Shown: positions 10,557 to 15,250 of the stretch, piece by piece
Layout of the letters: every line of letters starts with the position of its first letter
Numbering within the stretch: position 1 is the stretch's first letter
Source: Promethearchaeota archaeon
GTDB taxonomy: Archaea; Asgardarchaeota; Thorarchaeia; Thorarchaeales; Thorarchaeaceae
Length of the DNA: 30,173 nt
Assembly: GCA_027031765.1 (NCBI GenBank)
Contig: JALVPN010000211.1
Span: forward strand, 1 to 30,173
Direction of reading: 5' to 3'
Made by a program: the position numbers and the translations under genes
Notes under the pieces: model-generated
Told to the model about the DNA's origin: nothing
Databases searched by the model: none
The model's input: the letters and a program-made list of their open reading frames with translations, nothing else

Positions 10557-11339
10557 ATGATGCCGCGGGTATGCCTGACCAACGATGATGGTTTCAACAG
10601 CCAAGGCCTCCAGGAGCTGGCACGGGCAATCAGGTCTGAGATGGAGGTCGTGATTGTCGTACCAGACGGGCAGCGCAGTGCTACAGGGAAGGGGCTCACG
10701 CTGAACCAGCCCATCCGGATTGCCGAGAGAGAGGTGCTCAGCGGCATCAGACTGGTCGTGCACACAGGGACACCTGCCGACTCGGTGATTATTGCAAAGT
10801 CGTTCTGCAACAACATTGACCTGATTGTCTCGGGGATAAACTCCGGTGCCAACCTTGGGTACCAGAGCATGTTCACCAGTGGCACTGTGGGTGCCGTGTT
10901 CGAGGCCGCATTTGTGGGGGTGCCAGCGCTGGCAGTCTCACAGGTGGTCAGACCTGAGGAGTGGTTTGCCCCCAGCGGGGTCGGGCGCGACTACACGAGG
11001 ATTTGCGAGATGTGCATGGACGTAATACGCCGAGTCCTCAAGAGGGGGCTCCCGGAGGGTGTCGACGCGCTGAACCTGAACTTTCCGGGCAGGGTCACTG
11101 AGAAGAGCAGGATTGTGGTCACAAGACCGACGCGCGTCCGCATGGCAAACGACCTTGAGAGACGTGTTGACCCCAATGGCAGTGCATACTACTGGATCCG
11201 GGGGTACCAGGTGGAGTCGGGGCCAGGGACAGATGCCTACGAGGTGTTCGAGAACGGGAACGTGTCGCTCTCGCCAATTGTCATAGAGAGCGTGGGTGAT
11301 AGGGAACTGGCCGCTGTGCGCGAGTTCATGGGCGACTGA
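10557..11339 (+). CDS. surE: 5'/3'-nucleotidase SurE
   Basis: LTNDDG, QRSATG, GTPADSV, SGINSGANLG, SGTVGA, DPNGSAYYW. Confidence 0.95.
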   Translation: MMPRVCLTNDDGFNSQGLQELARAIRSEMEVVIVVPDGQRSATGKGLTLNQPIRIAEREVLSGIRLVVHTGTPADSVIIAKSFCNNIDLIVSGINSGANLGYQSMFTSGTVGAVFEAAFVGVPALAVSQVVRPEEWFAPSGVGRDYTRICEMCMDVIRRVLKRGLPEGVDALNLNFPGRVTEKSRIVVTRPTRVRMANDLERRVDPNGSAYYWIRGYQVESGPGTDAYEVFENGNVSLSPIVIESVGDRELAAVREFMGD

Positions 11340-12345
11340 GCATCTCAAGGGCCGCCCAGAGAGCATCGGTCTCGGGCCGTGGCAGTGGCCGCTCACCGTG
11401 GTCATCCACAACTCGGCGGGTGCCCGGGTCGCTGACCGTCCGGCCAATTATGGTTGCCCGTACCCCCGCAGCCCCGATGCTGGAGACGACCCTGTCCGCG
11501 TGGCCGGCGTCGCAGGTCAGGAGCATGCAGCCGCTGCTGATGAGTTGCATGGGGTCAATCCCGAGGACGGAGCATATCGCGCGCGTCGCAGAGTGGACCG
11601 GGATGCTACGTGCATCCACCATGCAGCCGACAGAACTGGCATCGCAGAGCTCGTGCAGTGCGCCGGCCAGACCGCCCTCGGTCGGGTCGTGCATTGCCGT
11701 GACGTGCCCGGTCTTGAAGGCGACAACACCCTCTTTCACCACGCTGATCAGTCCGCGCATCGCTGTTGCCTGGGAGAGGACATCCTCATGGATGTGTGCC
11801 TGCAGGTAGTCCCACCCCTCTGTTGCAAGGATGGCAGTGCCCTCGATTGCAACCGTCTTGGTCATGACTATGGCGTCACCCGGCCGGGCACCGGCTGATG
11901 TGACATACTCGCCGGACTCGCTGAAGCCGAGCATGAACCCTGCCACGACCGGCTGACCCGTGCGGTCGGTCACCTCGGTATGACCCCCCACGACCGAAAC
12001 GCCGAGAGAGGCGGCTGCACTGTCAATCTGTCCCATTATGCGCTTCAGCTCGTCAGGGGTGGCACCACGTGGCAGCAGTATGGAGGAGAGGAACCATCTC
12101 GGCGGAATGCCGAATGTAGCAATGTCGTTCGCGTTCACATGCACAGCGAGGTAGCCAACGTCCTCAACGGAGCCTGTAATGGGGTCGGAAGCCGCAATCA
12201 GGACGCCCGTGCCAATACGGATGACAGCAGCGTCCTGTCCCAGGCCGGGGCCCAAGACGACATCCGGGTCCTCACGACCGAGGTTGGTGAAGACAATGCG
12301 TTCCAGGAGTCCGGGCGGCACCTTACCGGGGAGCAATGTGGGCAC
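11326..12345 (-). CDS. AIR synthase-related protein (PurM/HypE/ThiL-like family)
   Basis: GKVPP, GPGLGQDAAVI, SDPITG, VNANDIA, GGHTEVT, MHDPTEGGL, ISSG. GTG 12345 preferred to 12420. Confidence 0.9.
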   Translation of the reverse strand: MPTLLPGKVPPGLLERIVFTNLGREDPDVVLGPGLGQDAAVIRIGTGVLIAASDPITGSVEDVGYLAVHVNANDIATFGIPPRWFLSSILLPRGATPDELKRIMGQIDSAAASLGVSVVGGHTEVTDRTGQPVVAGFMLGFSESGEYVTSAGARPGDAIVMTKTVAIEGTAILATEGWDYLQAHIHEDVLSQATAMRGLISVVKEGVVAFKTGHVTAMHDPTEGGLAGALHELCDASSVGCMVDARSIPVHSATRAICSVLGIDPMQLISSGCMLLTCDAGHADRVVSSIGAAGVRATIIGRTVSDPGTRRVVDDHGERPLPRPETDALWAALEMLSRP

Positions 12346-12584
12346 CTCGACACCGTGCTGTGCGCAGGGGCCTGTTGCTGGTGCATGAAAAGTGGTATCA
12401 TCGACACCCAGACTGGGCACTCCTCACTCACTATGACACCAGACTCGCGGCCCCGTGCGCTGGTGGACGGGTGTGGACTGTACTAATAAATCAGACCCAA
12501 TGGGCCGGACTGTGGTCACACCATGCGACCTGTGGTGGGCCCGCGTGCAGCGCCGCAAGGACGGACAGACAGACATCACAGCAC

Positions 12585-14063
12585 TCAGTGTGAGAGGTAT
12601 GCCTCGGCCTCATGGAGGTCGTCCATGGAGAGGCGAGAGCGGGTCTGGCAGCCGGCCAGGAAGAGGCCGATTGCGGAGCGTGCGGCCATGACCTCTCTGT
12701 AGAGGTAGCAGCGGCCACCGCCGGCCCTTGCAACGAGGAACGCCCCGAATGTCTTCCTGAGGGCCGGCACTGCGAGTACCGCCTCAATGGGGTCGGCAAG
12801 GCCGTCCCTGCGGGCGCGGAGTGTTGTGGCCAGCTCCAGGGCCTCATAGTATGGCCTGTGGAGCAACGTGCACCAGTGCCGTTCGTGGGGGTTGACATTC
12901 ACCGCTGCAATGCGCACCTTCGACCTCCGGAGGAGGCGCGCCGCTTTTACCAGGTCCTTGACGGGCGTATACTGCTCGTGTCCGGGGCCGACAGACTGTG
13001 CCAGGGGGATGTTAGGTGCAAAGTCGGAGATCAGGACCACCAGGGGCTGGACATCACGGCTACGCATCCTCTCCCGTCGGACAACCTCAAGGGCTTTCAT
13101 GAGCGCCTCGGCAAGGGGTGTCAGTCCTGAGACCCGCAGGCGGGCAAGTGCGCGGTAGACCTTGTTCCAGTTGGTAGTAGGCGCCTGTACCTCGACTGCG
13201 CCACTGTCCTTGAAAGCGATGATACCGACGCGGTCCTTTGAGCCACGGGTCTCCCGTTCTATGCGCCCAATGACGTCCCGCACCTCCCTCATGCAGCCCT
13301 TCATGGACATGCTGACATCAACGACCATGAGCACAGTGAGTGGGACGCGACCAGTGAACACCGACTCGCGGATGTCCTCACGTCTTATGGTGAGGTGGCC
13401 GGTCTCAGAGGGGCGCTCTCCACGGGCAATGGCTGCCACGACCGTTGATGGCAGGTGGATGCTGTGGACTTCCGGCCCCGGAATCCTCCAGCGCGTTGGC
13501 CGGCCGTGTTCTTCAGACTCCGACGACTTCAACGAGCCCATGGCACGGGAGCTCACACTCTTGTGTACCCAGCCACCAGAGCTCACTGTTGAGCGGATCA
13601 TTGCCCGCGTCATGAGGTCACGCGGGTCGAAGAGCACCTCGCCAGTGTCGAGGTCGGGGAGCTTCACATAGAACGAGGAGTCGAGGTCGGGTGTGTCCCT
13701 GATGTCAGACTTTGGGCCCATGATACGAGAGGGGGGCCCACCGTCGTACGGGCGTGTCGCGGTGCCCCACTCGTCCCCCGGCTCCGGCGCCGCACGGCCA
13801 CGTTCGACCACATCAATGCCGGCTGCAGGGCCGCTCTTCCGCTTGACCATTGTCCGGAGCCACTTACGGATGAGTACGTACATGATGGGGATGAAGACTA
13901 TCGTGTCCACAATGATTGCCGGCACGCTCGGGACGCCAGCAATCGCCGAGCCGAGGAAAAAGTTGAGTGGGCTCCACATCAACCATGCAAGGTATGACAG
14001 TGTTACCACGGCCATGATGGTACATATGGTGCCCTTGACCGGGTCACCCTGGGGGTTCCTCAC
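12585..14063 (-). CDS. ChlD/CobT-like vWA-domain protein with N-terminal transmembrane hairpin; probable -1-frame continuation of the upstream AAA gene
   Basis: GRPTRWR...[10 protein letters not shown]...IRREDIRE ChlD-type pre-vWA segment. [13 protein letters not shown] (13305-13319), [13 protein letters not shown]. Hydrophobic residues about 12-30 and 47-65. Confidence 0.85.
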
Positions 14064-14083
14064 CCCCTCGGTGCTTTTTTTTT
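14045..14083 (-). promoter_or_regulatory. Candidate -1 programmed frameshift/slippage signal (A9 run + hairpin)
   Basis: Minus strand reads GGT AAA AAA AAA GCACCGA GGGGGT-GAGGA-ACCCCC AG GGTG. A9 is at 14075-14083, core 6-bp stem at 14051-14067, extended CACC/GGTG pairing. Confidence 0.75.
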
Positions 14084-15250
14084 ACCATCAGCCATGTCGG
14101 TCTCGACAACACGGCTCTGACGGCCGAACCTCCCACCGCTGAGCCGGGGGCCTGTGATGTCAGAGGACTCCGATGGCGACTCGGTCGGCGACTTGCGACG
14201 GTCTCGCTTCTCACTTATCGAGACAGCCTTGGTGATGGCCTCTTGGATCTCCTGTGGGGACGGGGGCTCGAGGAGCCCACCGCGTCGTGTCCGGTGACTC
14301 AGCGCCAGTCTGGCACCCAGTTGCATGTCCTCAAGTGTGACCTCGGTCCGTCCTGAGAAGGCTGAATGGGTCATGGCGACCTTGCTGATAACGATGTCAG
14401 GTCGTACGCCATCGACCTCAAGTGCGTCGCATGCCATCGCTATGGCACGCAGGCGGCTCCGTGACAGGACCACCTCTGGGAGCAGCTCACGTGCACGGAC
14501 AATCCGCTCCCGCAACTCCGTCTGTGCCGCTGCCCACTCCTCACGGAACATCTCCGGGTCGTCCTCGAATGCGAGGTTCCTGCGTACGAGCTCCATCCTC
14601 TGTTCCACGGTCAGGTGACGCCCCACTGCGACGTGCGTGGGGAACCGGTCCAGTAGTTGCGGGCGTAGCTCGCCCTCTTCCGGGTTCATCGTCCCTATCA
14701 ACACAAAGTCCGAGGGGTGGGCAACAGAGATACCCTCCCGCTCGACCACGTTCACCTTTGTGGCCGCTGCGTCGAGCAGGTCATCCACGAGGTGGTCAGG
14801 GAGGAGGTTGACCTCGTCGACGTAGAGGACGTTCTGGTTGGCCTCGGCCAAGATCCCGGGCTTCAGGGCCTGGATGCCCTCTTGCAGGACGCGTTCGATG
14901 TCCAGAGAACCGATGAGCCTGTCCTCGGTCGCCGACAGTGGGAGGTTGACCACCCGCATCTTGCGTCTCTTCACAGGCAGGGTCTCGCCACGTTCGATGC
15001 GCCGACGGCAGTCCTCACAGAGCAGACGTCCTGACGGGGCACAGCCGAACCTGCACCCCTCGACTGTCTCGACTTCAGGGAGGAGGTCTGCAAGCGCCCT
15101 CACGAGGGTGGTCTTTCCTGTGCCCTTTGGGCCGGAGATGAGGACCCCACCGATACGTGGGTTCACGCCGTTCAGGAGGAGAGCGAGCTTCAGCTCGTCA
15201 AGGCCGACAATAGCAGCAAATGGGAGGACTGGTCGCTGGAGTTCGGTCAA
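14060..15250 (-). CDS. ChlI/BchI-type AAA+ ATPase (Mg/Co chelatase I-like)
   Basis: PFAAIVG, Walker A GPKGTGKT, Walker [42 protein letters not shown]. Confidence 0.92.

Follow-up and report, generated by a model that had tools for sequence, protein, structure and literature searches.

The 30,173-nucleotide stretch of DNA analysed here (the window) belongs to a 2.95-Mb metagenome-assembled genome of a Thorarchaeota (Asgard) archaeon, with 59% G+C and 95% completeness. On its minus strand, positions 12585-15250 hold an open reading frame (ORF) for a ChlI-type AAA+ ATPase followed, in another frame, by an ORF for a vWA domain protein. We consider it probable that this region is a single recoded gene of the fs-chlD type, which would produce a soluble short ATPase together with a membrane-tethered 888-aa form in which AAA+ domain, hydrophobic hairpin and vWA domain follow one another, and whose client would not be a tetrapyrrole.

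The zero-frame ATPase ORF (14060-15250, minus strand) encodes 396 aa and the vWA ORF (12585-14063, minus strand), which lies in the -1 frame relative to it, encodes 492 aa; the GTG of the vWA ORF overlaps the TGA of the ATPase as GTGA. Standard decoding gives the short product, a soluble 396-aa ChlI-type AAA+ ATPase. The putative -1 recoding site is a slippery A9 run at 14075-14083 (minus strand; GGT AAA AAA AAA GCA in the ATPase frame), 12 nt upstream of the ATPase TGA. In the -1 frame a TAA stands immediately before the run, and the frame is open from the run onward. When a -1 slip was modelled by reading one A twice, the result was an uninterrupted 888-aa product, the length given for the fusion in an original prediction made on this DNA. 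An independent Logan assembly of the source run, made with a second assembler, also has A9, at 14x depth and with no indel reported.

Just downstream of the shift site, the vWA frame encodes two hydrophobic helices. Helix 1 lies at 13974-14042 (minus strand; vWA-ORF residues 8-30, fusion residues ~404-426) and helix 2 at 13845-13925 (minus strand; residues 47-73), the latter ending in an 11-residue basic cluster (residues 66-76). Kyte-Doolittle hydropathy in 19-residue windows (KD19) reached 1.75 at residues 11-31 and 2.39 at residues 41-69 (nt ~13857-14033) and stayed below 1.6 throughout the remainder of the vWA-ORF protein; the Na/Ca exchanger encoded in the same window, used as a membrane control, gave values of 1.7-2.46. 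Both segments were present in all 51 aligned homologues, with median KD19 values of 1.77 for helix 1 and 1.99 for helix 2, and they combine the lowest sequence identity of the protein (0.59-0.66) with its highest hydrophobic fraction (0.65-0.78). Net charge is 0 in the loop between them (residues 31-46) and, as a median, +4 in the flank that follows helix 2. AlphaFold2 (AF2), supplied with the 51-sequence alignment, predicted helices at residues 8-30 and 47-73 with block-mean pLDDT values of ~76-89 (~81-87 over residues 11-30, ~78-89 over residues 41-70) and modelled them as a free hairpin with a low-confidence linker alongside.

Two hydrophobic segments of ~20 residues, a short uncharged loop and a single basic flank characterize a helical-hairpin anchor, and all of these were found here, helix 1 being borderline. 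Because the uncharged loop, the basic C-terminal flank, the hydrophobic segments and the AF2 helices fit such an anchor, the hairpin is predicted to have both of its ends, and hence the AAA+ and vWA domains, in the cytoplasm; most likely it inserts into the cytoplasmic membrane. The original prediction had described two hydrophobic segments and a basic cluster after the shift site and had used the positive-inside rule to place both domains in the cytoplasm. The hydropathy and charge values agree with both statements, and the loss of the hydrophobic segments among relatives that would have spoken against them was seen in none of the homologues.

The recoding site was followed through relatives in a scan of one genome per species, which gave 67 loci, 58 of them spanning the junction. 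An A-run of at least seven occupies the same position in 58/58 loci (A9 in 42, A10 in 10, A11 in 4, and A7 or A8 in 2). Relative to the ATPase, 51/58 loci have their vWA half in the -1 frame, and in most loci the ATPase stop follows the run by 9-12 nt. Every Lys codon of the run remains AAA, so that at least nine A stand uninterrupted in 56/58 loci. In 9 loci, the window among them, the vWA frame has a TAA stop directly at the run; in these, entry to the vWA frame from upstream is therefore only via the run. Both halves match one single-chain family, TIGR02442, and one annotated 880-aa fusion exists. Four loci (L001, L013, L039 and L050) encode in-frame fusions of 893-913 aa, each with one A more than its nearest relatives, while L049 has A8, one A fewer. 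Such one-A differences between close relatives could reflect assembly noise, population heterogeneity or genuine alleles, and genuine in-frame alleles could use slippage to make the short form instead. Two further loci (L009 and L012) need a +1 shift, which probably arose from other indels. A second A7 run abutting the ATPase stop (CC AAA AAA ATA A) replaces the A9 in L029 and is additional to it in L035; the slippery site has therefore moved within the family.

The N-terminal extension of the vWA frame (14016-14063, minus strand; V/I-RNPxGDPxKGTxCxx) carries a mark of translation. In the 15 codons that lead from the ATPase stop to the first ATG, codon-position entropies are 0.50/0.28/1.50, a pattern clearly typical of coding sequence. 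The first codon of the extension across 57 loci is ATA in 26, GTA in 17, GTG in 9, ATT in 4 and GTC in 1, so that a canonical start (GTG) heads it in 9/57 loci, including the window, and is absent in 48/57. Because the peptide is conserved yet lacks a start codon, it must be reached from the ATPase frame. Given the conserved A-run, the -1 frame in 51 loci and a coding signature without a canonical start, the 888-aa AAA-hairpin-vWA form is very probably made by recoding, as these comparisons of sequence indicate and as the original prediction had proposed in having the hairpin reached by recoding at a shift site. Ribosomal slippage and the addition of one extra A by RNA polymerase are indistinguishable here.

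A local stem-loop with a GGGGG...CCCCC core (14045-14073, minus strand) lies 7 nt after the run in the window, with a minimum free energy of -25 kcal/mol (z -3.0), and may stimulate slippage in this genome only. As a feature of the family it was dropped, since it is not conserved in relatives; for the same reason, we regard the run itself as the signal. A/T runs of at least nine are scarce, with only 8 in the whole 2.95-Mb genome. The 7 others are at C55:12197, C66:10451 (A10), C67:21025, C101:4117 (T13), C139:11081, C165:24244 and C167:7516, and some of them might be further slippage sites.

The genomic context points away from tetrapyrrole chelation. CobN/ChlH (PF02514) was not found in the window or elsewhere in its genome, which is 95% complete, nor was CobN in 24 same-family genomes, while the same search was positive in 6 other Asgard genomes and 5 controls. 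CbiD (PF01888) and CbiX (PF01903), the two corrin markers for which we searched, were likewise not found in the source genome. All NCBIfam scores fell below their equivalog cut-offs: BchI-ChlI at 385.8 vs 466.95, BchD-ChlD at 246.4 and 69.2 vs 499.55, and Cob-chelat-sub at 457.5 and 112.4 vs 779.45. A class I tetrapyrrole chelatase would be recognized by its large subunit, a corrin pathway and equivalog-level scores, and none of these was seen. The original prediction had noted the lack of a chlH/cobN large subunit in the window and had left room for an ordinary soluble cobaltochelatase subunit in a complete cob pathway; the extension of the search to the genome upheld the first point and gave no sign of the second, so the protein is not such an ordinary subunit. 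These negative results for CobN/ChlH, CbiD and CbiX make a role in tetrapyrrole chelation unlikely. In a genome and family lacking CobN/ChlH and corrin genes, the client is probably not a tetrapyrrole chelatase subunit; more likely it would be a protein in or near the membrane that the motor remodels or supplies with a cofactor or metal.

Several observations weigh against reading the locus as a recoded, membrane-tethered motor. Some concern the hairpin: the KD19 of helix 1 (1.75) is borderline and is reached also by the soluble SurE (1.78) and by the N-terminus of the ATPase (1.83); position-independent Hessa-scale sums are positive for both helices (medians +2.4 and +4.5 kcal/mol); and Pro32, Pro59, Trp27 and Asp/Asn53 are conserved in or beside the helices. 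Others concern expression: a conserved stimulatory RNA structure after the run was not found (median z -0.83 over 59 loci), the vWA frame here starts with GTG on the ATPase TGA, an ATG stands at codon 17 or 18 in every relative, and RNA runs holding 12585-15250 were not found, the stretch being present only in Logan DNA contigs of the probable source sample. Finally, no client candidate is seen in the neighbourhood, whose synteny extends through the whole family.

The first group of these observations would suit a hairpin that stays buried in a soluble AAA-vWA protein, for example as a helical element for oligomerisation or ring docking. The borderline hydropathy of helix 1, the positive insertion sums and the conserved proline, tryptophan and Asp/Asn residues all argue for this alternative. 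Helix 2, however, equals the helices of the Na/Ca exchanger in hydropathy, and a buried docking surface sits poorly with segments that are the least identical and the most hydrophobic of the protein, with an uncharged loop next to a strongly basic distal flank, and with a hairpin that AF2 leaves free between low-confidence linker. We therefore think a buried soluble element unlikely.

With a GTG at 14063 overlapping the TGA and an ATG further on, at codon 17 or 18, this genome might initiate the hairpin-vWA protein separately. Taken further, the two ORFs could be ordinary genes coupled by a GTGA stop-start, with no fusion made and an A-run that only encodes Lys-Lys-Lys; gene callers do annotate proteins of 476-493 aa, the GTG recurs in 9/57 loci and the ATG in all. 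This explanation leaves unexplained why a coding-constrained extension is headed by ATA, GTA, ATT or GTC in most loci, why in 9 loci a TAA leaves the run as the sole entry, and why the Lys codons are all AAA with so few interruptions. In-frame variants with one more A and an annotated fusion also exist, and Antonov et al. 2013 (PMC3711429) validated the poly-A device for chlD. We judge two separate genes to be quite unlikely, and recoding into one long product remains our preferred reading.

That the gene is really an in-frame 889-aa chlD, disguised by homopolymer sequencing or assembly error or by phase variation at the DNA level, could draw on the 4/58 in-frame loci with one more A, the one locus with one fewer and the proneness of poly-A to error and replication slippage (PMC3711429), but it is highly improbable given a -1 state in 51/58 independent assemblies from many studies, a zero-frame stop kept close behind the run in most loci and the A9 recovered by a second assembler. 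A genuine class I tetrapyrrole (Co/Mg/Ni) chelatase motor, membrane-anchored and with a large subunit that went unassembled or is too divergent, is equally improbable: its best family matches are indeed ChlI/ChlD and 'putative cobaltochelatase' and ChlI structures match at E 1e-98, but a search that works elsewhere found no CobN/ChlH here or in the 24 same-family genomes, CbiD and CbiX were not found, scores lie below the equivalog cut-offs and the AAA-vWA gene has been cleanly deleted in three relatives.

The hairpin-plus-linker module (vWA-ORF residues 1-170) was present in 37/43 same-family genomes; it was not found in any of 157 genomes from 26 other Asgard families, nor in any of 120 Bathyarchaeia in-frame relatives, whose linkers had a median KD19 of 1.07 and a maximum of 1.62. 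The search for ChlD-like proteins with a transmembrane linker, suggested with the original prediction, thus returned the same-family genomes, and from its distribution the module appears to be new to the fs-chlD family and restricted to one Asgard family. When the hairpin and linker were searched against 1.84 billion representatives, the sole full-length match belonged to their own 50%-identity cluster, and fragments of the module were also returned. Matches outside that cluster, to a 3500-aa cadherin-like protein and a 957-aa protein (both repeat proteins), were judged spurious because they were short, repeated and compositional.

After the shift site, the long form continues with a 16-residue extension, the two hydrophobic helices, the basic cluster and a conserved segment at residues 78-192. 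The last of these is the linker (13488-13832, minus strand), ~115 aa in length, with motifs written as GIDxx and 28 further letters and a mean column identity of 0.76 over residues 78-170. AF2 predicted it to be unstructured (pLDDT <50), and a linker that is conserved but predicted to be disordered is probably a binding segment. Complex prediction for the ATPase core (residues 1-345) with the linker (vWA-ORF residues 74-240) scored 0.00, which is uninformative either way. Positions 403-613 of TIGR02442 match the vWA ORF with 112.4 bits, starting only at residue 169; ChlD therefore has no counterpart to the ~170 residues that follow the shift site.

The vWA domain (12879-13343, minus strand) was matched by Pfam VWA_2 and VWA and has a complete MIDAS, made up of D249-x-S251-x-S253 (13305-13319), T315 and D347. 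All five residues are invariant in homologues, so that the DxSxS noted in the original prediction is intact. A Foldseek search with the vWA-ORF model returned generic vWA domains as top matches, NorD included. Residues 396-492 form a C-terminal helical domain (12585-12878 with the stop codon, minus strand) that extends beyond the end of the ChlD/TIGR02442 profile match; AF2 placed helices at residues 392-491 with block-mean pLDDT values of ~81-93 over residues 391-470 and 53-64 over residues 471-492.

The ATPase half matched Pfam AAA_5, AAA_lid_2 and Mg_chelatase, positions 2-346 of TIGR02442 ('putative cobaltochelatase'; 457.5 bits) and the ChlI structure PDB 6l8d (E 1.7e-98). Across 51 relatives, 92-100% conservation was seen for Walker A, Walker B, the sensor-1/Arg-finger block and the sensor-2 region, which bears out the intact Walker A/B and R-finger motifs of the original prediction. 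A Cys4 cluster (C66, C70, C78 and C81; CxFxC...CxxC; 15008-15055, minus strand) is inserted in the AAA+ domain. It is 100% conserved in 51 Thorarchaeota relatives, occurs also in Bathyarchaeia fusions and is probably a zinc ribbon. The ATPase C-terminus is a low-complexity basic tail that ends in ...DGKKKAPRG before the TGA.

Downstream of the AAA-vWA gene lies a gene for an AIR-synthase-like protein (11326-12420, minus strand), a HypE-like paralogue of the AIR-synthase family (134 bits vs a cut-off of 252) that lacks HypE's C-terminal Cys; the genome encodes true HypE and its best ThiL at other places. It is present in 56/60 same-family genomes and follows the AAA-vWA gene in 62 loci, the whole region being syntenic across the family. 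In three genomes of the same family, L073 (G002:C11), L074 (G014:C54) and L075 (G171:C8), thrC adjoins the AIR-synthase-like gene and the AAA-vWA gene has been excised; L075 retains a 70-aa remnant of the vWA C-terminus with 54% identity. Because the gene was deleted in these genomes, the motor is dispensable in some lineages. We rejected the AIR-synthase-like gene as an obligate partner, as it is kept where the AAA-vWA gene is gone. The link to this neighbour raised in the original prediction is thus not supported, and a 164-nt spacer with a TATA-like motif separates the two genes. A link to the Na/Ca exchanger was set aside as coincidence: besides the window, only one of the three Bathyarchaeia genomes has this gene close to the locus.

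We propose that a -1 event on the A9 would give an 888-aa protein consisting of AAA+ domain, basic tail, hairpin, unstructured linker, MIDAS vWA and helical C-domain, so that a fraction of the motor subunits would be tethered to the membrane and the frequency of slipping would set the ratio of short to long form. If ChlI/ChlD, CobS/CobT and NorQ/NorD are taken as analogues, the short form would build a hexameric ring that the long form joins or on which it docks, and the vWA domain at the ring pore would engage an acidic client residue through its MIDAS. The long form would thereby tether the ring to the membrane and present vWA/MIDAS to a membrane-associated client. The mixed rings and the membrane client, both put forward in the original prediction, are drawn from these analogous systems. 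A broader proposal, which we put forward only tentatively, is that one Asgard family (at the level of Thorarchaeaceae) may have turned the ancient ChlI/ChlD motor into a membrane-tethered remodelling or metallation machine unrelated to tetrapyrroles, in which poly-A recoding would dose the share of subunits that bear anchor and vWA adaptor and the conserved, unstructured linker of ~100 aa would dock the membrane client.

ChlI/ChlD pairs are also found as orphans, in organisms that produce neither chlorophyll nor B12. Because its long subunit appears to work at the membrane, the Thorarchaeota variant offers a concrete clue to these pairs. Recoding would here alter the location of a protein in the cell as well as its length. 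The client might be approached with a membrane-anchored bait, through the conserved linker or by way of the natural knock-outs in sister genomes (L073-L075). Very few cases of programmed frameshifting or transcriptional slippage have been proven in archaea (PMC8211752), and this locus is one more likely case; in annotation, its two ORFs are better described as one recoded gene.

Among known systems, the fs-chlD genes resemble the locus most directly. A 'magnesium chelatase' cluster with -1 poly-A sites was described in bacteria and in Methanocaldococcus/Methanococcus, and reporters for these other members of the family showed frameshifting of 10-63% with runs from A7 to A11 (Antonov et al. 2013; PMC3711429); fs-chlD was later found also in organisms without the large subunit or the pathway, and its function there was called unknown (Kuznetsov, Milenkin & Antonov 2022; PMC9227772). 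These genes have a ChlI-like AAA+ half and a vWA half in two frames, a poly-A run (A7-A11) with a -1 shift and a short product that stops just after the run, and they are known from archaea and bacteria, some of which have neither a large subunit nor a Chl/B12 pathway. The window locus has the same marks: halves of a single family, a conserved A-run with a -1 frame and a near stop, and a constrained downstream half that mostly lacks a start. Short and long subunits from a poly-A -1 slip are thus already published for chlD. The anchor module of the window locus, by contrast, appears to be new to fs-chlD as judged from literature and sequence searches; when publications on a membrane-anchored ChlD or on a chelatase frameshift in Asgard archaea were looked for, nothing relevant was returned. 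Where the window locus has ~170 residues with a hairpin and a conserved unstructured segment after the shift site, the usual fs-chlD linker is acidic/Pro-rich and soluble.

The nearest relatives outside the family are Bathyarchaeia in-frame ChlD-like fusions (L065-L067; P0128-P0247), with 58% identity in AAA+ and 35% in vWA. They share the Cys4 insertion with the window ATPase, and, as in the window genome, CobN was not found in the three of their genomes checked. Unlike the window locus, they are single ORFs of ~790-800 aa without a hydrophobic hairpin or an AIR-synthase-like neighbour, and no boundary A-run of at least nine was found in the three loci examined. Precomputed domain lists of the relatives P0128-P0247 include PF26791.1.

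With ChlI/ChlD and CobS/CobT (PDB 6l8d, 8osf), the window locus shares a very similar AAA+ domain (E 1e-98) with all catalytic motifs, a MIDAS vWA and an expected assembly of a ring with a pore-docking vWA subunit; in CobST, the vWA domain takes up a position at the ring pore in response to ATP (bioRxiv 10.64898/2026.10.09.757910). It differs from them in that CobN/ChlH and corrin genes were not found and scores stay under equivalog cut-offs, and in its predicted membrane hairpin, extra C-terminal helical domain and Cys4 insertion.

The MoxR-type pairs (NorQ/NorD, PMC9976466; Bat-like, Borrelia BB0173, PMC5700661), to which CbbQO and RavA-ViaA also belong, combine an AAA+ ring with a MIDAS vWA adaptor and act on a non-tetrapyrrole client. 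NorQ/NorD, a ring with one vWA subunit, matures the membrane enzyme cNOR (PMC9976466), and Bat-type vWA partners of MoxR are membrane proteins themselves (PMC5700661). The window protein has an intact MIDAS and has NorD among its fold matches. Its ATPase belongs to the ChlI clade and not to the MoxR clade (AAA_3 18.4 bits and bpMoxR 20.7 bits, both below the cut-off of 27). The window anchor, unlike that of MoxR-type pairs, stands between the ATPase and the vWA domain of one polypeptide and would be reached by recoding. The vWA domain of BB0173 faces the periplasm, whereas the charge pattern of the window protein predicts a cytoplasmic one.

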